A stretch of DNA of 64,000 nt from a virus. Taxonomy: Duplodnaviria > Heunggongvirae > Uroviricota > Caudoviricetes. The stretch is taken from positions 32,001 through 96,000 of IMG/VR virus record IMGVR_UViG_3300029288_000055. One strand, 5' to 3'. A model generated the notes under the pieces. It saw only the letters and a list, made by a program, of their open reading frames with translations. It was not told where the DNA came from and ran no database searches. A program made the position numbers and the translations under genes. This document shows, piece after piece, positions 23,503 through 40,020 of the stretch. Numbering within the stretch: the stretch's first letter is position 1; each line of letters opens with the position of its first letter.

Positions 23503-24336
23503 TTATTTTAATCCTTGTATTAATGTATCTCCGTACTTGATTCCGTCATAACCCAATTTCATTGCTTTCTCGGCAATTGCTTTATTTTTCAGATTAATTG
23601 ACGGCATATCATATTGCTCGCTTATTTTTTCGAAATTTATATGTGGAAACCAAATCTTTGCCATAATATCAACAGGTTCTTGACCATCCTTATATGTAAC
23701 ACCCAACGAATGTAAATCAAGAAGGTTGTTAAATTCAATTTCATATTTATCAAAACCTTCAACTGGTTTTAATAAAAAGAAATTGCCAACTACTGAATTT
23801 TCTTTTATTGGGTCTTTTCGATAACCAATGATAACTTTACTATTTGTACCAGTATCTCCAGAAGGTTTAATTGCTATATTATCTTCTTCCAATGAATTTA
23901 AAAATTCACTATCACTAACTCCACTGCTTGCCTGATTATCTTGGTTAATAACATCCTGAGTGATCACTTCTTCCATCTGTTGTTTCTGCTGGTAGTCATA
24001 AATGTCTTGTATTTTATTAAGTAGTCTACAAGCATCTTTTTCATTCAATCCAAGTTTAACTCCTTTAATATTGACACCATCCAAGATTGCTTTAACCATC
24101 CTGTGATGACCATCACAAACCTTATTTTCGCCAGCAATCCAAATAGGATTACTATCAGCAAGATTAACCTTTTCTACTTCATCAGAAAATGTAACACCTT
24201 GTGATGCTTCAAGTTCATTAGGGTCTACTTCGATCAATTCATAATCCACACCTTCTTCTTCGAGCTTCTGCAATACAATTTCGTAAGGTGCATTTACCTG
24301 TGGAAGAAAAGCTGGCTTATAGCGCATGTCAATCAT
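23503..24336 (-). CDS. ParB/Srx-like domain protein with possible C-terminal ADP-ribosyltransferase-like domain
   Basis: PNELEASQ..PIWI..VCDGHHR (ParB-like); C-terminal GYR..GNFF..YEIEFNNLLDL..LGYDGIKY. Confidence 0.6.
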   Translation of the reverse strand: MIDMRYKPAFLPQVNAPYEIVLQKLEEEGVDYELIEVDPNELEASQGVTFSDEVEKVNLADSNPIWIAGENKVCDGHHRMVKAILDGVNIKGVKLGLNEKDACRLLNKIQDIYDYQQKQQMEEVITQDVINQDNQASSGVSDSEFLNSLEEDNIAIKPSGDTGTNSKVIIGYRKDPIKENSVVGNFFLLKPVEGFDKYEIEFNNLLDLHSLGVTYKDGQEPVDIMAKIWFPHINFEKISEQYDMPSINLKNKAIAEKAMKLGYDGIKYGDTLIQGLK

Positions 24337-24349
24337 TGTGATAATTTTA

Positions 24350-24922
24350 CTATAAATACGACTGTTTAAATTTTTGAATTTCTATAATGATAATATCATC
24401 CAGCTTATTTACTGCTTCAGTTAATCTTAACTCACCATTATTTGCTGTAAATATTCGATATTTTATGTTTTCTGGTACTTGTGATTCGATTTCTTGATAT
24501 GAAATAATGTCAGTATCCCTGTCATCATAAACATTAACTTCTCTCAAATCAGGAAATTTTTTTATATAATCAAGAATTTTTTGACCCTTATTTCTTTCAT
24601 CGCCTTTCATATCAAGTTTATCAACATGGATATTATTAACATCCAATATTGCCTGAACCAAGGGACGTAACCTTACTACTCTTGAAGTTAATACAATAAC
24701 GTAGGTGGCAGGTGTTGAAACATCTTTATTTAAAATGCTTAATACCTTTGGAAATGGTTTAATGTCAAAAACATTTAAATCCAAACTTTCGGGTCTGCCC
24801 CACCAGCCTTGATATTTAAATGGTTCGCCCATTACTTCTGACCAAGTAATCTTTCCAGATTCTTTGTCAGGAGAATTTATGAGTGTTCCATCAAAATCAA
24901 ATGCACAAAATCTTGTTATCAT
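24350..24922 (-). CDS. HAD-family phosphatase, RNA-repair ('Swiss Army Knife') type
   Basis: FDFDGTLINSP, WWGRPESL, VLTSR, K, VYDDR = HAD motifs I-IV plus the WW motif of the RNA-repair HAD clade. Confidence 0.8.
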   Translation of the reverse strand: MITRFCAFDFDGTLINSPDKESGKITWSEVMGEPFKYQGWWGRPESLDLNVFDIKPFPKVLSILNKDVSTPATYVIVLTSRVVRLRPLVQAILDVNNIHVDKLDMKGDERNKGQKILDYIKKFPDLREVNVYDDRDTDIISYQEIESQVPENIKYRIFTANNGELRLTEAVNKLDDIIIIEIQKFKQSYL

Positions 24923-24923
24923 T

Positions 24924-25307
24924 TTATTTATATTCTACTTCGGTTACTTTTCCTGTTAATGAAAGTGGTTTTCTGATTTTTTCCCAATTAGTGAGATTGT
25001 TAGACATTATTGGTTTACTGCCATTTGTCCTATTCACAGCCAGAGTTATGTGTGCTTTTGCATTATTCGTTTTAAATCCTGATACACCTATTGCAATTAC
25101 CTTATCATCCATTGCAATGTCTTCAACAGCTAATCGTACTGGCAATCCAAGATATTTTTCATACTCAGAGTCTATTTCACCCATATTAATAGTCATATGA
25201 TCAGCTATTACATTCCAGTTTTCAGGAATTATATTTTTAAATCTATTGATCAGTCTTTTTCTTGAATTTTCATCAAGAACAACTGCACTATAAGATATTC
25301 CAGCCAT
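24924..25307 (-). CDS. 2H phosphoesterase, tRNA-ligase CPDase-like (2',3'-cyclic phosphodiesterase)
   Basis: Two HxT motifs, DHMTI and AHITLAV, followed by KP..SN.L..W. Confidence 0.8.
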   Translation of the reverse strand: MAGISYSAVVLDENSRKRLINRFKNIIPENWNVIADHMTINMGEIDSEYEKYLGLPVRLAVEDIAMDDKVIAIGVSGFKTNNAKAHITLAVNRTNGSKPIMSNNLTNWEKIRKPLSLTGKVTEVEYK

Positions 25308-25963
25308 TAATATGTAAATTTTGTAAGTACATTATAATTTTTTCCCAATGCAGTTAATGCAATTTCAACTTCTTTAAAACATTCATTAATACCACCGCCA
25401 CATATTACCAATTTTCCTGAATATTTTTGTAAATATTCCATTAAATCAGGTATATTAAGAGCATCTTGTGCAGGTTGAAGAAAATCACGAACATCACTCG
25501 AATTGTAACCATATTCTTTCATAAAACCAAGCCACATTTCTTCATCAATATCTCTACTATCATTAATATTATTTCGAATCATGTATTTAACAAGATTAAC
25601 TATTTCTTCTTCATCATGACCACTATCCATGCAACTTCTGAAAAATGCATAACCTTTATCATAAAATCTGGCATAGTCGAGTATTGATTCTTTAAGACCG
25701 TTTTGAATTAACCACATTTTATATTCTTCTTCGCCCATACTGCCAACAGTATTTTCACCATTATATAAAAATGTAAGAGAATTCATTGTATCAAAATTTC
25801 TATTTAAAAATCGTATATAATCACCTAATACAAAACTAAATGCATTATGATATTCTGGTTGAATATCAACAGACAAGAGATTTGCATTTTGAACCAGATT
25901 AATGCCTGAATCTTCTAACAATTTATTACGTTGTTGCTCTTTAAGTAGTTTTTCTTTTTTCAT
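25307..25963 (-). CDS. Cysteine hydrolase (isochorismatase/nicotinamidase-like)
   Basis: LLSVDIQPEY (Asp), YDKGY (Lys), VICGGGINEC (Cys) triad pattern. Confidence 0.6.
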   Translation of the reverse strand: MKKEKLLKEQQRNKLLEDSGINLVQNANLLSVDIQPEYHNAFSFVLGDYIRFLNRNFDTMNSLTFLYNGENTVGSMGEEEYKMWLIQNGLKESILDYARFYDKGYAFFRSCMDSGHDEEEIVNLVKYMIRNNINDSRDIDEEMWLGFMKEYGYNSSDVRDFLQPAQDALNIPDLMEYLQKYSGKLVICGGGINECFKEVEIALTALGKNYNVLTKFTY

Positions 25964-28900
25964 TAACCAGTATTTTCAATAAAATTAATTTCTTTTATTG
26001 GTATTTTTTCAGGTGATTCATATGAATCCGAACGTGCTCTATGTGTATAAACAAAGAATCCATCTTTATCTGCACCCATGCTTACGCCTTCTGCTTTTAG
26101 CGTTTTATCCATTAATTCTTTTGGTTTAGTTAAACCATGTACATGACCACCTTCTTTATATGTCGAACCACCAGTAAAATATTTAAGAATCTTTTCTTTC
26201 ATTTCGGCACTAATAGATTTTGATCTCATTAATGCTGCTTTAGCATTTTCATAATCTGATTTGCCTTCATTTAATAATTCTCTATCTGTCAACGCCCAGA
26301 GTAATTCTTTTTTTAGTTTTTCATCATGTGTAAAGTCTTCATAATTATTTTGTATAAACTCAAGTACTGAAGCCTCTGAAGGGTCTTTATAACCACTATT
26401 TTCACCACCTTGATGATTCCATTCATCATATTTTTCAACAAAAAATGGTATGCCAACTTTCTGACCATTTATATCCCAAGTACTTATTTTTTCAGGCTCT
26501 AAAGCATCATATGAAAATTCTTTTAATAAACCTTTTTCATCAAGTGACAATATTTTACCGTCTTTTTTACCTTTATGACCTTTCCAAGTATAAACCAACT
26601 CATTACCTTTTAATATTCTTTCTTTTTCAAATGGTTTAACATATTTATCACCTTCACCTTTGTTAACATATGCAATAGTAATATGAGCATGATAGTCAGG
26701 AAATTTACTTGTATTTGGTAATTCTTTCATTATTCCATTTGCTTTTTTCAATACTTCTGAATCAACATCAAATTTAACTACGTCAAATTCAGGATTTTTA
26801 AACACTGAAATACCTTTAATACCTATTTCAATTGGCTTTAATGGCATTTTAGACTTGTAAAGCTCAAATACATCTTCTGCTGTTACTTCGTCATGAAAGC
26901 CATATAAAATTGTGGTATGTGGTTCGTTTTCAATACCATATCCTTCTTTATCATATATATCATTCTTGTCAATTATTGATGTTATCTTACTCCAGATAGG
27001 TACATCAAGAAATAACATTAAGCAACCATATTCAATTCTTTCTGGTATTTTTTCTTCATTAATTTCTTCTGCATTTGCAAATCCAACAATATTTCTTGCG
27101 TTTTGTAATGCATCATATTTTTTTATTGTTGTTAATCTTACATGCGAACCATTAATTGGATGGTTGTAATCAACTCTACCATTGTTAATAAATTCTTTAA
27201 GTTGTTCTTCAGTCATATTTGTTGTCCAAATATCGCCTTTAAATTTAGTGTCTAATGGACGCATTTCAATTAAATATGTGTTTGTTTCTTTATCAAAAAC
27301 AATTTTATTTAATATAACCATCATCATACCACTTGGACTGCCAAAATATAGTTTTTGATTACTATATTTTTTCCAACCCCAACTTTCGACATCTTCTTTA
27401 ATCATTGGCTTTTCTTGCTTTGCCAAAGATAATAATTCTTCTTTATTATTCATAGCCTTATTAGCATAAATTTTCAATAATAATGATTTTTGCATATCAC
27501 CAATTACTTTACCTTGTAAACCAAGTTGCATTAAATCATTACCATTTATTGCTAATTCATTAACTGTTTTTGGATATTTACCCTGCAGTAATTCTTGTGC
27601 TGCAGTTTTAATAACATTAGGTAATATCTGACTTTGCAATGAAGTTGGAGATATCACACACATATTATGAGCAACTGATCTTGCTTCAATCAAATTGGTT
27701 GCTTCACCACTTTCAAATGCTAATTGAAGTGCTTTTATTTCTCTGTATGCATTTTCGTCACCCTTTAAATTAGTTTTATAGAATTCTGCAGGATTATTAA
27801 CAAGATTTTTACTTAACAAGTAAACAAATTCACCCATTGTTCTGACTTTATCAAACGGTTCTTTTGTATTCCTGAAGTCATAATATAAACCTTTACCAAA
27901 TATTTCTTTTAATAAGCCAGTTTCATCCAATAATATAGCACCTGTCAAAATATTACCTTTTTTGATAATTTTATCAAATTCTGTCAAAATTCTTTCAGGA
28001 GCAATTTCTTTTACTCGACCAGCATTGTCTTGAATCATTTTCATTGTCTCTGGTTCAATAATAAAACCAAAACGACTTGCGAACTGTACGGCACGCAACA
28101 TTCTGAGTGGGTCATCACTGAATGCTTGTGGGTTAACAACCTTAATTATTTTATTCTTTAGGTCTTCCTGACCACCAAATGGGTCAACAACATTACCCTC
28201 AATGTCTTTTGCAATTGCATTTATTGTAAAATCTCTACGTTCCAAATCTTTTTCAATTGGTAATGCGTGATCTGATTTAACATCAAATCCTTGGTGACCG
28301 CCTTCACCAGTTGGTGTTTCAGTACGTGGAATTGCAATATCAATATCTTCAGTTGCTCCCTTTGGTTTAAATTTAAGAACACCAAATGATTTACCAACAG
28401 CATCTACACGACCATATTTGCCAAGTATTTGTTCAAGTTGTTCAAATGGCACACCAGTGATAAGAATATCTAAGTCTTTGGATTCTTTGCCAAGAAATTC
28501 ATCCCTGACAGCACCACCAACCGAATATATTTTACCACCAACTTCTTCAACATCTTCCCTGAACGGAAGATAATTTAATCCCATTATTTGTGCTTCATAT
28601 ATCATGCTACGCACTTTTTTATTTGAATATAAAAAATTATTTAAATTTTCTTTATCCATCGGTAATTTGAAAACGTAATTATATCCTTTAAATTCATCAT
28701 CAAGACCAACATCACCATAAATTTGTGATTCTCCACCCAATGAACTCGAATATGCATCAAGCAATATTTCTTTTAGTCTTTCTACTGTTGGTGCATGAAT
28801 ATCTAAAATATTTCCGATCTCTCCTTTATTAAAAATAATTCTTGTATAACCATCACCATATGCTTTTTCATATATTTCTCTTTGATTTTTTATCTCAGGA

Positions 28901-31900
28901 TATAATCGCACCAAATAAGCCAAATGTATATCAGAAGAAACAAATTTATTATCTGGTGTTATCCAACCTGAATGATCATAATTAGGCACAATAATTTTTG
29001 ATTCTGTCAACATTTCATTTACTGGTTCATGTTTTTGTTTACTCTTTTCTGGTTTAAAAGTTTTTACAAATGTATCATAAATTTTCTCAGCAATAACACG
29101 ATTTGCTCCATTTGGTATTTTTTTTCTGAACATCATTTCAATTTTGTTCGCAATCTCGTGAGCGTCATCATATTCGTAACCGTAATGTCTTATAATAAAA
29201 CTTTCAGTTCTTTCATGTAATAGTATTGCTTCAAAATCATTTGGCTTAATCATGAATACATCATCAATCCAATATTCATTTTCTGGAATATTTTTGGCAT
29301 ACTTTTGTTCATCTTCTGGAAGATCAGCATCAACCCAATGATTACCACCATCAACCCATTCAATAAATCCACTGTCACGAACCTGATCACCATTAACTAC
29401 AAAAACTTTATAAGTATTTTTTCCATCCTGATAATTTCTTATAAATTTTTTATCAAGTTCGTGAGTAATAATATCTTTTTCAATTTGTTTTTGAAATGTT
29501 GAAAAATCTTGTTCTGTTAAATCAAATTTATTTTCGGGACTAATGTTTGCAACATAGTCTGAGTAATTATCTGAATATATTTCAACAGATATTGTTTTTT
29601 CTTTATTCAAATATGCCTGTGCTACACGATGATATCCATCTTCAACTAAAAATGTTTTGTTTTCAATATTATAAAACACTAAAACTGGCTCATTTGTGGT
29701 AGTAGGTCTATCTTGTTTAATATCTTGAATTGATGCAATTATACCACGTTTACTAACTGTTAACTTGTTTAATGGAAAATCATTTACTGATATTGGTTCA
29801 TCTTTACTAACACCACGACTTAATTTATTTATATCAATTTTTTCATCTAAATCGTGTACATCTTCTTCGTTTAAATCCCAAAAATCAAATGAAGCCTGTT
29901 CAGCAAGATCATCAAAATCATCTGGTGATTTATCTGACATTATAGGTACTTTGCTGCCATATTTATTACGAATATAATTTTCAACATCACTTGATTTATA
30001 TTCTAATAATCGTCCAATCTCACGTGCTTCTTCTGGGGTTCTATCTGCAATATAACCATTGTTTCTTTTAACAATTTCATATAATAAATATGCATTAATT
30101 TTATCACGATATATGATTGCCATCATTGTTTGATGTGAAGTCATTCTCGTAGGAATAACACTAATTTTCTTTTTTTCTAATTTTTGAGCAATTGCTTTAT
30201 TTATTTCAGCAAAACCCACATTTCTTTTATTATTTAAAACCGATTTAATTGAATCAATATTAGTGCGAACATCTTTTACACTTATTTCTTCATTAATTTC
30301 TTCATTTTCTTTAAGCGGTTTTATATCCAAATTTTTAATATCACCTTGATTACAAGCAACGCTGGTATTACCAAGACCGCCTAATCTACATTTCTTTTTA
30401 ACATCAACAGTACTACTGCCAGCCATTGAAGATAATACTCGTTCAGATATTTCAAAATCATTAACTGGTGATGATATGTCAACAGCATTAATTGTTGATA
30501 TTTCTTTATTGAAAAAAGCAACTAATTTATGATATCCATCTATTAAAATTTTATCTGACACATTAACCACAAAATAGTCATTTAAATGTTTCTCAATATT
30601 TTCTTCATAATATTTTATTGTTTCTATTTGTTCTTTTTTTGCATAATCAAGACTATCCTCAATTTCACCATTATTGTAAAACAAATAAATATCTTTTACT
30701 TTTATTTGTTTAACTTCAAAATAATTATTATCATATTCATCAATAGTAATAAAATTCCATAATATTTCACGTTTGTCAGGCATTTCAGAATAAACATTAG
30801 ATAACTTAACGCCATTAATATGCTGAAATTCTTCACTCATTAAATATTCATCTTTGGTTGCATCATTCACATGATTATATTCTAAATCTTCATTATACAT
30901 TGATCTGTTTGCATTAAGATCATTTTGAATTGATGGCGAATTATCTGTATTATCATGTACAGGAAAATCATCTTGACCCATTGAATTATCGGTTGAAAAC
31001 TTAGCTGAACCATCTTCAGGTATGTATACAATATCCTGTGCGGTAAGTGTTGGTTCATTTGCTCTATAACCACCAATATCAAAGAATTTTAGTATCCCAT
31101 TTTTATATCCTAAATTACTTGGATTGCCATAATCATCTGATTTAATACCATATTTATATAATTCTTCCTGTATATTAATCAAATCAATTAAATAATCATA
31201 TGCCAATTCTCTATCTTCATTAGATATGTTTGTTTCAGGTTTATCTGTTAATATGTGCTTTGCAACTTCTGTTATTTCTGCAGGAGTTCTTTTACGCATT
31301 TTTAATAATATATCAATAAAATTTAAACCTGCTGGTTCAATTTTATTAATAATATCCATATATCTAAAAAATTCTGCTCTTGGTTTATCCTGAATGTTTT
31401 CTTGAAGTATAGCAAAAAATGCCAATTGTTTTTCAGTGTCAATTACTTTATAAAACGAATATATTTTACTAATATATTTTGGTTCTTCATTCATTAATTT
31501 ACCAGCAGCATCTGCTTCGCTTTTATCTGCTGTTAATTTAAAAATTACATTATCATTTACTGTAAAGGCATAACCATTTGCACCACCATCCAAATATTGT
31601 AATTGACCAATATTTAATTTTGCTGCAACAGCATTTGCCAATTCAATTGCATAGTTCTTATTCTCTAAAGTATATGGTTGAACTGCAGGTTTTGATGTAC
31701 TTGTTATTTCATTAATTTCATATTCTTCTTTAAGTAATGGTTCTCTATTATATAAATTTTGTTCAATAAGACATTCTTGAAGTGCTAACAAATTATTATA
31801 GAATTTCTTTTTCTCAGGAACACGTTTCAATACTTCTTTAAGATTATTTACACAGTTATGAAATTCATCAAGAACATATGGTGCACTTGGCAACTTTTTT

Positions 31901-32706
31901 GGATATTTATCTCTGGCAAGCACAAACGAAATGAAACCTTCATTAATAACGCCACCGCCATCACCAACACTATAGGGCATTTGCGCCCACATACCTCTAC
32001 GTGTATCAACAGCATCTTGTGGTGGCATATCTGAAAGCATATCATCATTACCATCAGCACAATTAAACATTTCATATATTTGATATTGACGTTTTCTTTG
32101 TGGACTGTAATGTGTATTATATACTTCGTCAGTTAAACCATAGTCAGTAAGAACAATTGTTGGCTTACCATTACGTATTACTTCACCAAATGTACTTGCT
32201 CTATTTAAATCACCAGCACTAATAGAATAATTTCCTATTATATCTTCTAATTCAATAACAAATTCATTATTATTTAAAAGTTCTACAATTGCTTCATCCT
32301 GACCAAATGTGCCTCTTCCACCTTTATGATTATCTTCAAAATTCTTAAGAAATAAAAATAATTGAAATAAACTTGGGATGCCAGTTAATTGTTTAATTCT
32401 TGATTCACTAACTTTTTTTGCTTTTTCAGCAATAATCCAATTGCCATTTGGGTCATATTCATAAATTTTAGTGACAATATCGTGACTATCTTCATATGTA
32501 CCGATATTTATTTCTTCTTCGTTTTGTGCTACTCCTTTGGTATTCTTAGCAATTTTAAATACTTTAGTACCATCAATATCATATACAATTCTACCACTAC
32601 CTGCACCAAGTTTTTGAAGGTTTTGATCAGCAAACATTATTTTCTGTCTAAATGATTGTATTTCTTCAAATTGGTCTAAGAAATTTAAGAAATTTTCGTA
32701 AGTCAT
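25963..32706 (-). CDS. 2247-aa polyvalent protein: 2 kinase-like, 2 ParB-like, HE-type domain, CCA-adding nucleotidyltransferase, Acb1-like 2H phosphodiesterase and several unknown domains
   Basis: LGAGSGR/VFKIAK/DYG; DGGANG/IFKLT/DYGNPSN/FFDIG; IDGYHK; EDGYHR; LLHERTE..AHEIA; VGGAVRD..KDLD..RRDFTINA..DDPLRMLRA; PHTTILY..HAHITIAY. Confidence 0.85.
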   Translation of the reverse strand: MTYENFLNFLDQFEEIQSFRQKIMFADQNLQKLGAGSGRIVYDIDGTKVFKIAKNTKGVAQNEEEINIGTYEDSHDIVTKIYEYDPNGNWIIAEKAKKVSESRIKQLTGIPSLFQLFLFLKNFEDNHKGGRGTFGQDEAIVELLNNNEFVIELEDIIGNYSISAGDLNRASTFGEVIRNGKPTIVLTDYGLTDEVYNTHYSPQRKRQYQIYEMFNCADGNDDMLSDMPPQDAVDTRRGMWAQMPYSVGDGGGVINEGFISFVLARDKYPKKLPSAPYVLDEFHNCVNNLKEVLKRVPEKKKFYNNLLALQECLIEQNLYNREPLLKEEYEINEITSTSKPAVQPYTLENKNYAIELANAVAAKLNIGQLQYLDGGANGYAFTVNDNVIFKLTADKSEADAAGKLMNEEPKYISKIYSFYKVIDTEKQLAFFAILQENIQDKPRAEFFRYMDIINKIEPAGLNFIDILLKMRKRTPAEITEVAKHILTDKPETNISNEDRELAYDYLIDLINIQEELYKYGIKSDDYGNPSNLGYKNGILKFFDIGGYRANEPTLTAQDIVYIPEDGSAKFSTDNSMGQDDFPVHDNTDNSPSIQNDLNANRSMYNEDLEYNHVNDATKDEYLMSEEFQHINGVKLSNVYSEMPDKREILWNFITIDEYDNNYFEVKQIKVKDIYLFYNNGEIEDSLDYAKKEQIETIKYYEENIEKHLNDYFVVNVSDKILIDGYHKLVAFFNKEISTINAVDISSPVNDFEISERVLSSMAGSSTVDVKKKCRLGGLGNTSVACNQGDIKNLDIKPLKENEEINEEISVKDVRTNIDSIKSVLNNKRNVGFAEINKAIAQKLEKKKISVIPTRMTSHQTMMAIIYRDKINAYLLYEIVKRNNGYIADRTPEEAREIGRLLEYKSSDVENYIRNKYGSKVPIMSDKSPDDFDDLAEQASFDFWDLNEEDVHDLDEKIDINKLSRGVSKDEPISVNDFPLNKLTVSKRGIIASIQDIKQDRPTTTNEPVLVFYNIENKTFLVEDGYHRVAQAYLNKEKTISVEIYSDNYSDYVANISPENKFDLTEQDFSTFQKQIEKDIITHELDKKFIRNYQDGKNTYKVFVVNGDQVRDSGFIEWVDGGNHWVDADLPEDEQKYAKNIPENEYWIDDVFMIKPNDFEAILLHERTESFIIRHYGYEYDDAHEIANKIEMMFRKKIPNGANRVIAEKIYDTFVKTFKPEKSKQKHEPVNEMLTESKIIVPNYDHSGWITPDNKFVSSDIHLAYLVRLYPEIKNQREIYEKAYGDGYTRIIFNKGEIGNILDIHAPTVERLKEILLDAYSSSLGGESQIYGDVGLDDEFKGYNYVFKLPMDKENLNNFLYSNKKVRSMIYEAQIMGLNYLPFREDVEEVGGKIYSVGGAVRDEFLGKESKDLDILITGVPFEQLEQILGKYGRVDAVGKSFGVLKFKPKGATEDIDIAIPRTETPTGEGGHQGFDVKSDHALPIEKDLERRDFTINAIAKDIEGNVVDPFGGQEDLKNKIIKVVNPQAFSDDPLRMLRAVQFASRFGFIIEPETMKMIQDNAGRVKEIAPERILTEFDKIIKKGNILTGAILLDETGLLKEIFGKGLYYDFRNTKEPFDKVRTMGEFVYLLSKNLVNNPAEFYKTNLKGDENAYREIKALQLAFESGEATNLIEARSVAHNMCVISPTSLQSQILPNVIKTAAQELLQGKYPKTVNELAINGNDLMQLGLQGKVIGDMQKSLLLKIYANKAMNNKEELLSLAKQEKPMIKEDVESWGWKKYSNQKLYFGSPSGMMMVILNKIVFDKETNTYLIEMRPLDTKFKGDIWTTNMTEEQLKEFINNGRVDYNHPINGSHVRLTTIKKYDALQNARNIVGFANAEEINEEKIPERIEYGCLMLFLDVPIWSKITSIIDKNDIYDKEGYGIENEPHTTILYGFHDEVTAEDVFELYKSKMPLKPIEIGIKGISVFKNPEFDVVKFDVDSEVLKKANGIMKELPNTSKFPDYHAHITIAYVNKGEGDKYVKPFEKERILKGNELVYTWKGHKGKKDGKILSLDEKGLLKEFSYDALEPEKISTWDINGQKVGIPFFVEKYDEWNHQGGENSGYKDPSEASVLEFIQNNYEDFTHDEKLKKELLWALTDRELLNEGKSDYENAKAALMRSKSISAEMKEKILKYFTGGSTYKEGGHVHGLTKPKELMDKTLKAEGVSMGADKDGFFVYTHRARSDSYESPEKIPIKEINFIENTG

Positions 32707-34659: not shown

Positions 34660-35442
34660 TTAATCATATTTTGTAAATACTAAATTTATATATTCCAAAA
34701 GGTTTGGCACAATATCTAAATATTCCATTTCATCAACATCATACCAACCATAATTGGTATGTTCATCATTTAATTTTATATCTGTCGGGTCACCTTTATA
34801 ACGACATGCAAATATGGTTTCAATACTATCTGGATTTCTTTGAATAGTAAATGACTTAATAAATTTATCAATATCAACATTAATCTCTTCTTTAATTTCT
34901 CTCTTAATTGCTTTTTCTGGTGTTTCTCCCTTTTCAATTCCACCACCAACTAATGCCCATTTACTTGGTTGCCATATCTTAGGGTTTGACCCTCTTTTTA
35001 AAAGTAAAATTTTATTATCTTCATCAACAATTACAGCAACAGCATTTTTCTTCAATTCATCTTTTTTCTTTTTTTCTTCATTTAATTTTGGAGTTTGATA
35101 CGGCTTTAATTCTGAATTAGGATTGATTGTCATATCCTGTTTAACATCTTTTGTCATTTGAACACCTGCCCTATCACTTACTAATGTCGTATCAATAAAT
35201 TGTTTCATAGCATTTCCACCAGCAAGCGCATATTGAATTTTATCACCAATTTCAGGATTAAAATAATCAAAGAAATTTTTTAATCTTTTCATTGCCTGAT
35301 AAGTTATAGCACCATTTTTAAGCATGAATTTAGCTCTTTTAACGCCTTCACCATTTGGATTGGATATGAGGGTTGTTTGGATGCTTTTCAGTACTTCTGG
35401 GGGTATTTTATACGTCTTATCGTATAATTCTTGATTAGCCAT
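34660..35442 (-). CDS. Nudix hydrolase with unknown N-terminal domain
   Basis: Nudix box GGGIEKGETPEKAIKREIKEEI; ILLLKR..W. Confidence 0.9.
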   Translation of the reverse strand: MANQELYDKTYKIPPEVLKSIQTTLISNPNGEGVKRAKFMLKNGAITYQAMKRLKNFFDYFNPEIGDKIQYALAGGNAMKQFIDTTLVSDRAGVQMTKDVKQDMTINPNSELKPYQTPKLNEEKKKKDELKKNAVAVIVDEDNKILLLKRGSNPKIWQPSKWALVGGGIEKGETPEKAIKREIKEEINVDIDKFIKSFTIQRNPDSIETIFACRYKGDPTDIKLNDEHTNYGWYDVDEMEYLDIVPNLLEYINLVFTKYD

Positions 35443-36339: not shown

Positions 36340-39300
36340 TCAATCTTCTTCGTTTTCATCATCAAATGATTCTGCATCATCTTCTTCATCAATACCCTCC
36401 ATTTGATTAACATAAAAATCAAGCATTTCACCTGCAGTAACTTCTTCACGTAAAAGCACTTCCATTGTCATCTCTTCAGGTATTTTAAAGCGTTTTTTAA
36501 AATTATTAAAATATTTTTCTCGTTTTAATTTGATAAGTTCAATTTCCTGTTCCTTTTCAGTCTTAGTAGCCAATGTTATTTCAAGATTCCTGATTCTTTC
36601 TTCTTCTTCGGCTTTTTTTCTATCCAGTTCTAATTCAATTTCACACTTGGGTATATTAACACTTTCTCTTATTGTTTCAATAAACACACCATTATGTTTT
36701 CCAAGAATATATTCACCACCATTTTTAATTAAAACCAAATCACCCTCAAAACATTCCTCATTTACTGATTTAATTTTTGGTTTGTCATTCTTAGCCATCA
36801 GATCATTTAAATAATTTAATGCATGATCATATATTTCATAATAAACTTTATTATCATCAAACATTTTAAACCCTTTCCATATTTTTCTTGGGTCATAACC
36901 AGTTTTATTCCAAAATTCAACCTCTTTTTCTTCCAAATGCATTGATTCATCAAAATCATTCAGATCAAAATTCTTTAATTCTAATTGATATGATGCAAAA
37001 TCCTTACCACCACATCTTAAATCAACTTCTTTAGTTTTTTTATCTTTAACTATTTTGGCAAGTATTTTTTGAGATACTTCAGGTTCAAAGCCAACAAGTA
37101 TTGTTTTAACTCGCTTATTGAATGCATTTAAATATTTTGCAACATTATACTTGCCCATCATGTTTGGATTTTCTAACAAATCATCAGCAGTAATTAAAGT
37201 AGAACAATATCTTTCTTCACCAGTTACAGGGTCTTTAATAATGCTTGAATTTCCTTCGGATGCCTTTGTTCCAGTATTTACATAATAAACAACACTATCA
37301 AGTTCTGGTTCGGGTGGCATGTAGTTTGTAACCAGTTTCAACTTATCATCAATACTTAATTTATCTTCGTCTTTAGTAAAAATTAATTGCGATTTGTGCT
37401 TTTGAAATATTTCTTCGGCAATTTTATTTCTCTTATCAATCAAAAGTTCCATATGTGCCTGTTTACCTTTTTCTCTTCCGTTTTTATCTTTACCTCTCTT
37501 TTTATATGCAGTAATTGTATTTTTTATCTTACTTTTACTTGCAATTTTTTTCAATGGGATTTGACATAAGTACAAATTTTCAGCATAATCATTATAATAA
37601 CTAACAAACTCAGCACCTTTACCATGAAGAATTAATTCCAAACCTTTATCAATGAAGTCTTCAATGTACCCGGGCATGATCTTTGATTTAATCGTATTAC
37701 CCGTCAATTTAATTTTTTCTTTCATTTCGCCAGTCTTTTTATCTTTGGCAAATGCTAAAGTTGCATAATTAATTCTTGAAAGATTAAGGCAAGAAATTGA
37801 TTCACCATCATTATCAATTGACATGTACGGTGGACGCATTTCTTCTTTATTGTACTTATCAATAAGTGCATTAATACCTGTCTTGCCATTATATTGCCAC
37901 ATTTCTTCAATTAATCCCTCACTTAATCCCTCAGTTATTCCCTCATCAGTAATTCTAATTGTTGTTTTTTCTGGATATTGAAAATTAATACCATCAGTTA
38001 CAGCAAGCAATGCAATACAACCATATCTACTGAACCAACTAATTGCATGTCTAAGATGTAATCTACCAGTACAAGTAATACGTGCTGCGCATACGTTATC
38101 TGACCAGTTAAATGAAATATCAGAACCAAGAGCACCGTATAATGAATTGTTCAAAATTTTGATAGGTAATTGTTTGATTTTAAACATCGCAACATCAGCA
38201 GGGGTCAATAATTTATTAACATACTTCAAATGCATTTCTGGGTCGATCTGTTTGAAAAGAACAATTTCTTCGGAATTCAATTCAATACCATTTCCTAATT
38301 TCTTATAGATGTTACGAGTTGTAGTTAAGTACAACAATATTTTCTTCATAACACCAGTAATATCAAATATTGGAAATACGTCTTCAGTTAATTCTATTGA
38401 AGGATAAAGACCAGCATAATCAATTTTGATAATTCTTTTAGTAAATCCTGATTTATAACATCTTGCAAGACCACCTGCAAATTTTTTAGCTAATTTAACA
38501 TCACTTTCAGGAATAGCAAGGTCATTTTCATAACTCCATGCTGTCATAAGTAAATTCCAAACGGAAGCAGTACCCATAGTACAGATTCTCTGATATGTGG
38601 TTGGGATGATCTTAGCAAGCATGAATGATGATTGATTATAAAGTTCATCAACCTGTTCAGTTTCCCAGAGGTCATCAAGAAGATAATTTTTTACAAGTTT
38701 TTTTCCGCCAATAAAGGCATTCATTTTCTTTGGAAGTGCTTCTTCTCTAAACCATTTAACGAAGTCTGGTGCATCATTAAGATATGCAATTTTTAGTGCA
38801 CTGTATTTTTCTGGAGATAATGTTTCTTTATTTGCTTGTAACGTATATAATTTTCTTGCAATAATTTGATATACGTCAGGAACTTGAATATAATTATTTT
38901 TATCGTCAATAACAAACACTTTATTCTCCCAATAAATTCTTCCAATAGCATTATCTTCGCCCGGGATATAGGTGCGATTAGGTCTTGCAATCTTTTCGAA
39001 TTTTGCAATATATTTTAGTTTATTTTCCTTTATTTCACTATTTACTGCTGCAGTTCTTCTTACCGCATGTAATATATCAATTACTGAATACCCCCACATT
39101 TCAGTTGCAATATATTTATCGGCAGTATTACCATATTTAACTGATGTATTGGGTTTTCTTTTTAACTGAACACCCTCTTTAAGACTTGTTGGAATTTTTG
39201 ACATATCCATCTTTAAAAGTTTTGCTCTACCTAAAATGAATTCAAAGTCAAACATTTCTGAGTTAAAACCTAAAATAACTGCTGGTCTTATTTGATCGAT

Positions 39301-40020
39301 CAGATTAAAGAAATCTTGAATAAGCTTAATTTCAGATTCGTCATCATTTGGCTTATTGGTTTCAAGTATCATTTCAAAACCTCTGTTGTCCCTGACACCA
39401 ATAGCAAATAATCTTGCCATTTGATATCTCAAACCAGTTGTTTCACAGTCAAAAGTAAGTTTATGAATTTGCTTATATTCTTCAAGACCTTTGTATAATC
39501 TTGATTGCGTTGATATAAAAAATTGTTCATATGGTTTAACAGAATGAAAAAGGTCACGATGTAAATATTTTACATCGCCTTTTTTATTTCTAACAACATT
39601 TCCATCACTATCTTTAACTTTGTCAAACGGATTGAGACCACCATCACTAAAATAATTTATAATTGCATTATATGATTTATTGCTTGTTACTTTATAACAG
39701 AAACCGTTAACTAATCTTTTTTGATTACCTGTTTTTAGTTTAGTAATTGTAATTCCATATTTTATTCTTTTGCTTTCAATATATGTGTCAGAATAACCTT
39801 CATATAAATTATAACCCAATTTAGGTAAATCTTTCATATACATGAAAGGTTCATATGCCATTTTTATTGTTTTTGGTTCTTTGTTTGGCTCATGAATAAT
39901 ACAATCAGCAAGATTAGTACTTGGGTCTGTTTCAACATTTACCAGATATTTTAAATCATTATTGTAACCTTCAAGAAATCCTTTAATCTCCGCAAGGACT
40001 TTTAGCTTATCCATTTTCAT
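36340..40020 (-). CDS. Family B DNA polymerase
   Basis: Exo I FDCETTG, Exo II FNSEMFD, Exo III YLLDD; motif A DYAGLYPS, motif B KILNNSLYG, variant motif C AVTDG. Confidence 0.92.
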   Translation of the reverse strand: MKMDKLKVLAEIKGFLEGYNNDLKYLVNVETDPSTNLADCIIHEPNKEPKTIKMAYEPFMYMKDLPKLGYNLYEGYSDTYIESKRIKYGITITKLKTGNQKRLVNGFCYKVTSNKSYNAIINYFSDGGLNPFDKVKDSDGNVVRNKKGDVKYLHRDLFHSVKPYEQFFISTQSRLYKGLEEYKQIHKLTFDCETTGLRYQMARLFAIGVRDNRGFEMILETNKPNDDESEIKLIQDFFNLIDQIRPAVILGFNSEMFDFEFILGRAKLLKMDMSKIPTSLKEGVQLKRKPNTSVKYGNTADKYIATEMWGYSVIDILHAVRRTAAVNSEIKENKLKYIAKFEKIARPNRTYIPGEDNAIGRIYWENKVFVIDDKNNYIQVPDVYQIIARKLYTLQANKETLSPEKYSALKIAYLNDAPDFVKWFREEALPKKMNAFIGGKKLVKNYLLDDLWETEQVDELYNQSSFMLAKIIPTTYQRICTMGTASVWNLLMTAWSYENDLAIPESDVKLAKKFAGGLARCYKSGFTKRIIKIDYAGLYPSIELTEDVFPIFDITGVMKKILLYLTTTRNIYKKLGNGIELNSEEIVLFKQIDPEMHLKYVNKLLTPADVAMFKIKQLPIKILNNSLYGALGSDISFNWSDNVCAARITCTGRLHLRHAISWFSRYGCIALLAVTDGINFQYPEKTTIRITDEGITEGLSEGLIEEMWQYNGKTGINALIDKYNKEEMRPPYMSIDNDGESISCLNLSRINYATLAFAKDKKTGEMKEKIKLTGNTIKSKIMPGYIEDFIDKGLELILHGKGAEFVSYYNDYAENLYLCQIPLKKIASKSKIKNTITAYKKRGKDKNGREKGKQAHMELLIDKRNKIAEEIFQKHKSQLIFTKDEDKLSIDDKLKLVTNYMPPEPELDSVVYYVNTGTKASEGNSSIIKDPVTGEERYCSTLITADDLLENPNMMGKYNVAKYLNAFNKRVKTILVGFEPEVSQKILAKIVKDKKTKEVDLRCGGKDFASYQLELKNFDLNDFDESMHLEEKEVEFWNKTGYDPRKIWKGFKMFDDNKVYYEIYDHALNYLNDLMAKNDKPKIKSVNEECFEGDLVLIKNGGEYILGKHNGVFIETIRESVNIPKCEIELELDRKKAEEEERIRNLEITLATKTEKEQEIELIKLKREKYFNNFKKRFKIPEEMTMEVLLREEVTAGEMLDFYVNQMEGIDEEDDAESFDDENEED

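Follow-up and report, generated by a model that had tools for sequence, protein, structure and literature searches.

A predicted 2H phosphodiesterase domain, akin to Acb1 and joined to a CCA-adding domain in a giant jumbo-phage protein, with a possible role at RNA 3' ends

The 2247-residue protein and its neighbours

The window analysed here is the whole 64,000-nucleotide stretch at positions 32,001 to 96,000 of the IMG/VR virus record IMGVR_UViG_3300029288_000055, from a jumbo phage of roughly 363 kb. On its minus strand lies a 2247-aa ORF of polyvalent type, located between the baseplate/fibre genes and the replication genes. The ORF, its relevant parts and the two adjacent genes are as follows.

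25963..32706, minus strand: the whole polyvalent-type ORF, 2247 aa, carrying the CCA-adding domain and 2HA
27412..28554, minus strand: class II CCA-adding tRNA nucleotidyltransferase domain, residues 1385-1765 (PF01743, 82 bits; PF12627, 53 bits)
27037..27411, minus strand: 125-residue insert between the CCA-adding domain and 2HA, residues 1766-1890, shared only with P0101 and L005
26539..27036, minus strand: 2H phosphoesterase domain (2HA), residues 1891-2056, located by translation, Pfam, AlphaFold2 and fold comparison
26911..26919, minus strand: first catalytic HxT motif, H1930-T-T1932, aligned with H44/T46 of T4 Acb1
26668..26703, minus strand: second catalytic motif, FPDYHAHITIAY, an Acb1-type signature with H2008-I-T2010 at 26677-26685 and Tyr at His+5
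25966..26538, minus strand: C-terminal tail module, residues 2057-2247, with phrog_3666 on the last 44 residues
24924..25307, minus strand: second, stand-alone 2H protein (2HB), 127 aa, with HMT and HIT motifs, Trl1-CPD-like
24350..24922, minus strand: HAD-type phosphatase with an FDFDGT (DxDxT) motif, PF10307 HAD_SAK_1, in conserved synteny

The preliminary description of this DNA had placed an Acb1-like phosphodiesterase, embedded in a polyprotein, at 26570-27045. The embedding was confirmed: this interval corresponds to residues 1888-2045 of the uninterrupted ORF, and the four strings quoted from it (YGCLML, EPHTTILYG, VVKFDVDSEVL and NTSKFPDYHAHITIAY) are all present in the minus-strand translation. 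With the last beta strand included, the domain extends over about 26539-27036. Its AlphaFold2 model (pLDDT 94, pTM 0.86) has the 2H fold; over 40 solved 2H entries matched it with Z scores of 10-13. In an alignment of 26 relatives, the His of the first motif was invariant and the Thr nearly so. 2HA thus shows both hallmarks of the 2H superfamily, two HxT motifs kept in its relatives and the pseudo-symmetric alpha+beta 2H fold, and is a catalytically intact-looking 2H phosphodiesterase domain whose activity is predicted from sequence and model. The Pfam E-values (Acb1, 7e-6; 2_5_RNA_ligase2, 1e-4), the match to PHROG 755 (E 6.5e-10) and the profile of its relatives, which collected 6298 protein clusters at E<=1e-3, 5002 of them at E<=1e-10, indicate that the assignment is not a chance match. 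The clade is very large and is found mainly on viral contigs.

The CCA-adding domain also matched NCBIfam PRK13299 (158.8 bits, positions 14-393 of 396) and phrog_2244 (229 bits). No HD domain was detected in it by Pfam, and with 152.7 bits against a cut-off of 451 it is not a member of NF008137, the class II CCA nucleotidyltransferases with an HD phosphohydrolase. Where the 125-residue insert sits, most relatives have a CCA-2H linker of 12-17 residues. The tail module is also the C-terminal part of a HAD protein, of solo 2H proteins and of numerous proteins of polyvalent type; a protein atlas search with it returned no match. The ORF further contains two kinase-like regions and ParB-like DGYHR/DGYHK motifs. 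The order in homologues is two kinase-like domains, middle domains, ParB-like, CCA, 2H and tail, and some of them have a GNAT or ART-PolyVal insertion. By this predicted make-up the ORF is a multi-domain protein in the sense used for polyvalent proteins by Iyer et al. (2017), and the occurrence of 2H domains in such proteins was already described in that year (Iyer, Burroughs, Anand, de Souza, Aravind; PMC5512222). No MuF or portal fusion was found in the 2247-aa protein, and nothing in the window indicates packaging. Delivery in the virion, which the preliminary description had proposed, could be supposed only by analogy with the general polyvalent-protein model (PMC5512222).

Next to the large gene, 2HB scored 27.8 bits against PF08302 (tRNA-ligase CPD), above the cut-off of 23 bits, and in about 20 loci it either lies beside the CCA-2H block or is joined to it in one polypeptide. 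As had been noted earlier, 2HA and 2HB are distinct in sequence: their BLASTP match comprises 21 residues around the second HxT motif (E 0.013). The HAD protein scored 24.2 bits against PF10307 (cut-off, 25.6) and matched phrog_415, annotated 'polynucleotide kinase'. Another neighbour, p277, was considered as a Tpt1-like 2'-phosphotransferase; this was rejected, and the protein resembles a ParB-like domain (DGHHR) joined to an ART-like domain. Among the genes scanned around the block, no RNA ligase or polynucleotide kinase domain was identified.

Association of the 2H clade with CCA-adding enzymes

A CCA-adding domain and a 2HA-type domain were found on one polypeptide in 73 related proteins, in either order. 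The CCA-adding domain comes first in 44 proteins with a gap of at most 30 residues and in 20 with an inserted domain, and the order is reversed in nine. The median CCA-to-2H gap is 15 residues in the CCA-first proteins, and seven of the nine reverse-order proteins have a gap of 25-51 residues. Proteins made of these two domains also exist (P0104, 576 aa; P0287, 585 aa). In a tree of 288 2H domains, built without a reliable outgroup, the CCA label requires at least seven changes on well-supported branches. Much of the adjacency could be due to shared ancestry, and a local swap of the two domains would preserve it without selection. The AlphaFold2 model of a minimal CCA-2H protein had a pTM of 0.61 with a disordered linker (residues 398-409, pLDDT <50), so that no fixed interface between the two domains is predicted.

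The block consisting of CCA, 2HA, 2HB, HAD and p277 is kept together in about 20 IMG/VR jumbo-phage loci with varying fusion states, and in one of them, L028, it is separated from the kinase-bearing part. The same 2H clade is fused to an NTP_transf_2/MTPAP-like nucleotidyltransferase in L025, L043 and L041, where a CCA gene lies 1.4-2.2 kb upstream, and, with the 2H domain first, to an RNase_T exonuclease (L052, L083). All five phage records of at least 90% completeness with a solo homologue encode a CCA enzyme elsewhere; in Maribacter phage Molly_1, whose gp186 is a solo 2H homologue, no CCA enzyme was found. The neighbours of 31 solo-gene clusters (140 proteins) displayed no common theme, of RNA repair or otherwise. 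The commonest Pfam families near solo 2H genes were PTPS, YqeY, PrsW and gp32, and Thg1 was seen once. In the literature searched, no paper connected Acb1 with either polyvalent proteins or fusions of CCA and 2H domains, and none dealt with the BCSR5 phosphodiesterase.

The phage carries 55 tRNA genes and a tmRNA gene. Given that encoded CCA is absent from 50 of these 56 genes, tRNA 3' ends would constitute a major substrate pool for the locus. An Rfam search of C1:194001-231000 for self-cleaving ribozymes in the tRNA arrays gave only tRNAs and one tmRNA.

Kinship to Acb1 and candidate substrates

Acb1 is one of the few known phage enzymes that erase CBASS signals. The best Pfam match of 2HA was Acb1 (PF23474, 26.2 bits), followed by 2_5_RNA_ligase2 (PF13563, 22.5 bits). 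The gathering cut-off of PF23474, 27 bits, was not reached by the domain alone (26.2), the whole protein (20.2) or the genome scan (25.2). Some relatives exceed it (P0100, 38.6; P0117, 37.5; P0109, 36.6 bits), whereas in most the generic PF13563 scores above the Acb1 model. Against the PDB, the family profile retrieved Acb1 7t26 (27 bits, E 2.6e-5), the BCSR5 'Acb1' 9q2g (22.8) and an archaeal LigT-like protein (20.8). The hhalign comparison of the 2HA family with an Acb1 alignment gave 95% probability (E 2e-8) and matched the HxT/HxT tetrad, which in T4 Acb1 is H44, T46, H113 and T115 (PMC9117128). The top Foldseek and VIA matches of the model were 7t27 and 7t26 (Z 13.0 to 7t26), but Usb1, TT0787 and cGAMP PDE are tied with Acb1 between Z 13.0 and 12.2. 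The 2H subfamilies are not separable by fold over the range 13.0-11.7, in which Acb1 is followed by Usb1, ThpR-like proteins and LigT.

The signature [FYW]xxYxxHxTxxY is common to 2HA and Acb1; the pattern Y..H.[TS]..Y occurs in 271 of 277 family members and in 10 of 11 Acb1 proteins. The T4 sequence quoted in the preliminary description proved correct, as gp57B contains LVLDSEYL followed by THDFDDYTPHITLSY. Of the base-stacking aromatics of T4 Acb1, W74 aligns with 2HA F82, which is invariant in the 26 relatives and is Phe also in FBB1 Acb1. The counterpart of F107 is F115, a position occupied by F, Y or W in the majority of relatives. The median pI is 5.2-5.6 for the family and 5.5 for Acb1. 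Around T4 Y12, a base-stacking Tyr in strand 1, the N-terminal strand was unreliably aligned by hhalign (YGCLM in the family, GLYVA in Acb1).

For two features of Acb1 no counterpart was seen. E141, the adenine-specific contact (Hobbs et al. 2022, PMC9117128), is invariant in 17 Acb1 proteins; it aligns with 2HA W154, a position that varies among W, Y, F, K, C and T in the family. No conserved Trp equivalent to the lid Trp (T4 W147, in the flexible C-terminal lid 145-152, which closes over the ligand) was seen past the last core strand of the 2HA family. The tail after the core is a predicted beta strand (P0104 residues 569-572), after which 190 more residues ensue in the internal 2HA domain. 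A different kind of lid is conceivable. The term 'Acb1-like' is accordingly supported in part: it holds for the nearest characterised relatives by Pfam, PDB profile and fold and for the signature of motif 2, and falls short at the gathering cut-off, the tied fold scores and E141, with no lid Trp seen. Clustering with LigT/ThpR, the contrary outcome named in the preliminary description, was not found, since 2HA has the Acb1 signature and a Tyr replacing LigT Arg130. That the closest characterised relatives of the clade are Acb1 nucleases and not ThpR/LigT is supported by these sequence and model comparisons, with small margins.

Considering this kinship, there is a considerable, if somewhat doubtful, possibility that 2HA is a genuine Acb1-type nuclease, carried as polyvalent counter-defence cargo, whose substrates are the cyclic oligonucleotides of CBASS or type III CRISPR, its adjacency to the CCA-adding domain being inherited architecture. 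The first rank of Acb1 in Pfam, PDB profile, Foldseek and VIA, the hhalign result, the shared signature, aromatics and acidic pI, and the relatives above the Acb1 cut-off all agree with it. So do the presence of a separate CPD-like 2H protein, which already covers end-healing, and the prediction by Iyer et al. (2017) that 2H domains of polyvalent proteins degrade signalling nucleotides (PMC5512222). It is weakened by the score below the cut-off, the preference of most relatives for PF13563, the variable residue at E141, the lack of an apparent W147 counterpart, the fold scores tied with Usb1, TT0787 and LigT-like proteins, and the repeated linkage of the clade to CCA-adding, Pol-beta nucleotidyltransferase and RNase T-like domains. 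A search of the 41 genomes akin to the bin gave no CD-NTase (SMODS). These genomes measure 0.3-1.0 Mb, which suggests that the phage contig was probably placed in the wrong bin; with its host thus in doubt, this absence carries little weight.

Iyer et al. proposed two alternatives for 2H domains in polyvalent proteins (PMC5512222), namely an RNase that trims 3' ends like Usb1 and a phosphodiesterase of the 2'-5' oligoadenylate type. Trimming would suit the fusions to 3'-end enzymes, and the fold scores are close (human Usb1, Z 12.7 against 13.0 for Acb1; the viral 2',5'-PDEs rotavirus VP3 and MHV ns2, 11.4-11.7). We consider both unlikely: no Usb1 or AKAP7/viral PDE sequence signal appeared in Pfam, or in PDB profiles up to E 10, and the 3'-phosphate or cyclic-phosphate product of trimming would block CCA addition unless the HAD phosphatase acts next. 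An ordinary ThpR/LigT-type RNA 2',3'-cyclic phosphodiesterase yielding 2'-phosphate ends has in its favour weak matches (LigT_PEase, 18.3 bits; TIGR02258, 17.4 bits) and the name '2'-5' RNA ligase' that relatives carry by automatic annotation. It is nevertheless highly improbable: the TIGR02258 cut-off is 65.7, a Tyr occupies His+5 in 274 of the 277 family members where E. coli LigT (Arg130) and archaeal LigT-like 2fyh have Arg, and LigT chains ranked below Acb1 in every comparison.

RNA 3'-end processing and comparison with known systems

The reading that we tentatively prefer, with a confidence somewhat short of even, is that 2HA uses Acb1-type chemistry on RNA or tRNA 3' ends. Its most consistent partners, the CCA-adding domain, the second 2H protein and the HAD_SAK phosphatase, point to such work, as do the 73 proteins with CCA and 2H on one polypeptide, the block kept in about 20 loci despite varying fusion, and the fusions of the same clade to other RNA 3'-end enzymes. 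The neighbours are of the RNA end-healing type, since 2HB passes PF08302 and the HAD protein has a HAD_SAK_1 match and the DxDxT motif. In addition, the CCA-adding domain here is without HD, and HD-bearing CCA enzymes take 2',3'-cyclic phosphates off tRNA ends according to a passage of PMC10673834 that cites Yakunin 2004. The CCA enzymes of all five near-complete solo-homologue phages and the 50 of 56 tRNA/tmRNA genes lacking CCA argue in the same direction.

From these associations we infer a substrate, a regiochemistry of the product and an order of steps. 2HA would act by metal-independent attack through the ribose 2'-OH, or by opening a 2',3'-cyclic phosphate, and would probably leave a 3'-phosphate; its probable job would be to clear a tRNA 3' terminus that is blocked by a cyclic phosphate or otherwise spoiled. 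Dephosphorylation by the HAD phosphatase would follow, and the tail would be made anew by the CCA-adding domain, so that 2HA would stand in for the HD phosphohydrolase domain found in CCA addition/repair enzymes of the E. coli type.

Several observations stand against RNA-end processing. The nearest characterised enzymes cleave cyclic oligonucleotides. 2HA lacks the Arg with which LigT hydrolyses 2',3'-cyclic phosphates (in E. coli, Arg130 at His+5, which holds the nucleophilic water and the product phosphate; PMC5283653), and it is acidic whereas the LigT groove is strongly positive (PMC5283653). With 2HB, which is CPD-like, the block may already have its healing enzyme, and the minimal CCA-2H model is without a fixed interface. 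Polyvalent proteins combine unrelated activities (PMC5512222), and adjacency in them may reflect ancestry. Finally, Molly_1 is without a CCA enzyme, the solo-gene neighbours are without an RNA-repair theme, and the tRNA arrays yielded no self-cleaving ribozyme by which tRNA ends with a cyclic phosphate would arise.

One may speculate further, although we think it improbable, that the CCA-2H-2H-HAD block, borne by a polyvalent protein, serves to 'cut back and rebuild' tRNA 3' ends, with T4 Acb1 as a signal-degrading offshoot of an RNA-end clade. Terminal nucleotides that are chemically blocked or over-extended would be cut off by the Acb1-type nuclease, examples being ends to which toxins of the toxSAS/CapRel type have added pyrophosphate or which toxins of the MenT/AbiE type have lengthened; the second 2H protein and the HAD phosphatase would clear the phosphate, and the CCA-adding domain would restore the tail.

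These results place thousands of phage 2H domains, as one clade, beside Acb1, many of them hard-wired to tRNA CCA-adding enzymes. Given that in this phage group the domain is nearly always beside a CCA-adding enzyme, 2HA may clean damaged tRNA ends instead of, or besides, erasing immune signals. If cyclic oligonucleotides are degraded, the 273 Acb1 proteins detectable by BLAST would greatly understate how widespread anti-CBASS activity is in jumbo phages. Should tRNA ends be processed instead, the clade would represent a phage tRNA 3'-end repair pathway answering defences directed at the CCA end, and would caution against labelling every Acb1-like 2H domain anti-CBASS.

Compared with known systems, 2HA shares with Acb1 (T4 gp57B; FBB1 7T26/7T27; BCSR5 9Q2G/9Q2Y; PF23474) the compact phage 2H fold, the HxT/HxT motifs, the form [FYW]xxYxxHxT[IL][AS]Y, the aromatics at the T4 W74 and F107 positions and the acidic pI. 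It differs in its identity of about 15-17%, in an inter-His spacing longer by 8 residues and in being embedded in a 2247-aa protein, whereas Acb1 is a free protein of 150 aa; it is also persistently joined to a CCA-adding domain, whereas T4 is without any CCA-adding enzyme. With ThpR/LigT (5LDI, 1IUH, 2FYH) it shares the 2H fold (Z 11.7-12.3), but LigT Arg130 is a near-invariant Tyr and the family is acidic where LigT is basic. The 2H domains of polyvalent proteins (PMC5512222) resemble it in lying in a giant phage protein with truncated kinase-like and ParB-like domains, in the ART-PolyVal and GNAT domains seen here in relatives, and in the solo versions of other phages. In PMC5512222, however, the 2H domain is fused to MuF or portal domains, and the text is without the term 'CCA-adding', whereas the constant partner here is a class II CCA-adding domain.

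The end-healing enzymes of tRNA ligation (Trl1 CPD; T4 Pnkp phosphatase; the 'Swiss Army Knife' HAD, PF10307) are matched by the neighbours 2HB and HAD, the CPD-like 2H being 2HB and not 2HA. The E. coli-type CCA addition/repair enzyme (NF008137) likewise couples a CCA enzyme to a phosphoesterase that could in principle remove a 2',3'-cyclic phosphate from tRNA 3' ends. The 2H domain here would be metal-independent and is not HD, and the CCA-adding domain is of the Bacillus type (PRK13299, tRNA_NucTran2_2), so that the resemblance is a functional analogy only.

Identity and kinship of the 2H domain

Every string that the preliminary description quoted for an Acb1-like anti-CBASS phosphodiesterase is present in the minus-strand translation of 26570-27045, within a polyvalent-type ORF:

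25963..32706, minus strand: giant ORF, uninterrupted, 2247 aa (translation)
about 26539-27036, minus strand: 2H domain including its last beta strand (AlphaFold2 model of a relative and translation)
26911-26919, minus strand: first HxT, H1930-T-T1932 (translation)
26677-26685, minus strand: second HxT, H2008-I-T2010 (translation)

An alignment of 26 relatives shows no variation at either His or at the second Thr, and very little at the first Thr. An AlphaFold2 model from 26 relatives (pLDDT 94, pTM 0.86) has the 2H fold by Foldseek and VIA-align. Judged from sequence and model, the domain is real and its predicted catalytic tetrad intact. The 158-residue piece scored 26.2 bits (E 7e-6) against PF23474 (Acb1), 22.5 bits against PF13563 (2_5_RNA_ligase2) and 18.3 bits against LigT_PEase, all under the Pfam cut-offs, with 39.8 bits for phrog_755 and 17.4 bits for TIGR02258 (NCBIfam; cut-off 65.7).

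When the family profile was compared with all PDB sequences, Acb1 of phage FBB1 ranked top (27 bits, E 2.6e-5), followed by the Burkholderia phage 'Anti-CBASS protein Acb1' (22.8 bits) and two archaeal LigT-like proteins (20.8 and 20.4 bits). Against 17 Acb1 proteins, hhalign gave 95% probability (E 2e-8). This homology favours a cyclic-oligonucleotide nuclease, and a true eraser of cyclic-nucleotide signals is possible, though somewhat less likely than RNA 3'-end work, which the genomic context favours. The model was matched best to Acb1 structures, 7t27 by Foldseek and 7t26 by VIA-align (Z 13.0), with Usb1 (12.7), TT0787 (12.3), penguinpox cGAMP PDE (12.3) and LigT (11.7) so near that the modelled fold scores can be taken as effectively tied. 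A Usb1-like enzyme or a 2'-5' PDE is unlikely.

The second motif is the most telling feature common to the domain and Acb1. It reads FDDYTPHITLSY in T4 Acb1 (the T4 sequence given in the preliminary description agreed with the T4 protein), YPDYRPHITLSY in FBB1 Acb1, EYNAHLTLAY in the protein of Burkholderia phage BCSR5, and FPDYHAHITIAY in the window; the pattern Y..H.[TS]..Y occurs in 271/277 sampled family members and 10/11 Acb1 proteins. His+5 is Tyr in 274/277 sampled members. The corresponding E. coli LigT residue, Arg130, holds both the water that acts as nucleophile and the 2'-phosphate of the product (PMC5283653), and archaeal LigT-like 2fyh also has Arg at this position. With Tyr and not Arg at His+5, the domain therefore lies outside the ThpR/LigT cluster, the grouping named beforehand as speaking against an Acb1-like enzyme, and a ThpR-type enzyme is very improbable.

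In the alignment, the family's invariant F82 is the counterpart of T4 W74 (FBB1 also has Phe there), and a conserved aromatic is that of T4 F107. Acb1 E141 contacts adenine (PMC9117128); it is invariant in the Acb1 alignment, and the aligned position is variable in the 2H family. No lid Trp was seen after the 2H core, which continues into a beta strand and 190 further residues, and a majority of relatives match the generic PF13563 better than PF23474. The kinship implied by 'Acb1-like' is supported by profile, hhalign, best fold match and second motif, but because the score falls just under the Pfam cut-off, most relatives prefer PF13563, the position aligned with E141 is variable and no lid Trp was seen, the domain is best described, on its sequence, as Acb1-related and not as an Acb1 family member.

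Linkage to a CCA-adding enzyme

The giant ORF and its downstream genes also encode the following.

Residues 1385-1765 of the giant ORF: complete class II CCA-adding enzyme (PF01743, PF12627, PRK13299 over full length)
24924-25307, minus strand: second 2H protein; passes the PF08302 cut-off (tRNA-ligase CPD domain), with two HxT motifs of its own
24350-24922, minus strand: HAD protein with DxDxT; matches HAD_SAK_1, the 'Swiss Army Knife RNA repair' HAD family

Pfam detected no HD domain in the giant ORF. The 2H family is very large: its profile matches 6298 clusters of the representative library (E<=1e-3), and many of these matches lie within proteins of 500-2300 aa. In 73 related proteins CCA and 2H share one polypeptide; proteins made of these two domains only also occur (P0104, P0287). 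CCA is N-terminal to 2H and separated from it by <=30 residues (median 15) in 44/73; an extra domain intervenes in 20/73, including the giant ORF with its 125-residue insert; and 2H precedes CCA in 9/73, at a distance of 25-51 residues in seven. The 'with CCA' state changes at least 7 times on well-supported branches (FastTree, 288 domains). Each of the five solo-2H phage records of >=90% completeness has a CCA enzyme at another locus; Maribacter phage Molly_1, which has a solo 2H copy, and T4 have none.

CCA, both 2H domains, the HAD protein and a 277-aa protein are kept together in about 20 IMG/VR loci in varying states of fusion. In more distant members of the clade the fusion partner is either a Pol-beta-type nucleotidyltransferase, in which case a CCA gene lies just upstream, or an RNase T-like exonuclease; fusions with NTP_transf_2/MTPAP-like nucleotidyltransferase, DUF3008, DUF5661 and RNase_T-type DEDD exonuclease lie at L025:7206-8897, L041:6702-8951, L052:1061-2377 and L083:7953-9263 of related loci.

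The 277-aa protein (23503-24336, minus) follows the HAD gene as a conserved neighbour in about 18 loci. A ParB-like DGHHR motif lies near its N-terminus, and R173, S181 and GNFF are invariant in its C-terminal region; it weakly resembles an ART-PolyVal cluster (atlas, 0.83) and has no Pfam match. A 218-aa gene (25307-25963, minus) separates the giant ORF from the second 2H; with no Pfam or PHROG match and no homologue in any of 80 related loci, it seems to be an insertion peculiar to this phage. The giant protein closes with a C-terminal tail (25966-26538, minus; phrog_3666 on the last 44 residues; no match in the atlas) that recurs at the end of unrelated proteins from related phages, namely a HAD phosphatase (L037), solo 2H proteins (P0280, P0274) and many polyvalent proteins, and that may serve as an address or packaging tag.

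The phage and its tRNAs

The contig, C1 (362,763 bp, 30.5% GC; the window is C1:32001-96000), is a jumbo phage, given its size and its baseplate, fibre, family B DNA polymerase and helicase genes. The other contigs of the bin stand at about 36% GC, and the genomes of the bin's 40 nearest relatives measure just 0.3-1.0 Mb; the phage has probably been mis-binned, and the bin is therefore no reliable guide to the host. The genes a short way upstream of the giant ORF include a Nudix hydrolase (34660-35442, minus; 70 bits) and the family B DNA polymerase (36340-40020, minus), which places the ORF's locus outside a head-assembly module; none of the features examined demonstrates the virion delivery that the preliminary description proposed.

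Outside the window, C1:195944-237385 (L085, L086) carries 55 tRNA genes and a tmRNA, with CCA encoded in only 6/56. Many of the tRNAs are followed by AAA; one has the amber-reading CUA anticodon (C1:237313-237385) and another a four-base anticodon call, taag (C1:203185-203265).

A candidate role at RNA 3' ends

From this context we tentatively propose that the 2H domain works in RNA/tRNA 3'-end processing, although we stop short of calling this probable. PMC10673834, citing Yakunin 2004, reports that CCA enzymes with an HD domain rid tRNA ends of 2',3'-cyclic phosphates. Placed on a CCA enzyme that lacks HD, and followed by a phosphatase gene, the 2H domain would take over this role. Pnkp-like HAD phosphatases take off 3'-phosphates. 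Acb1 chemistry passes through a cyclic phosphate and ends in a 3'-phosphate (PMC9117128). The 2H, HAD and CCA activities would thus form a coherent path.

Several points caution against this 3'-end role. Polyvalent proteins combine unrelated enzymes (PMC5512222), and much of the CCA-2H adjacency may be shared descent; AF2 predicts that the linker of the minimal CCA-2H protein is disordered and gives no fixed domain interface (pTM 0.61); the 2H domain is acidic, like Acb1; a CPD-like second 2H is already present in the block; and no ribozyme able to make cyclic-phosphate tRNA ends was found by Rfam in C1:194001-231000.

The searched literature yielded no paper describing the CCA-2H pairing, an absence that is weak evidence. 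2H domains in polyvalent proteins were published in 2017, before Acb1 (2022), as proposed degraders of signalling nucleotides or Usb1-like RNases, in a paper that does not use the term 'CCA-adding' (PMC5512222). Set against these systems, the value of the finding is a choice between two substrates for one 2H domain.
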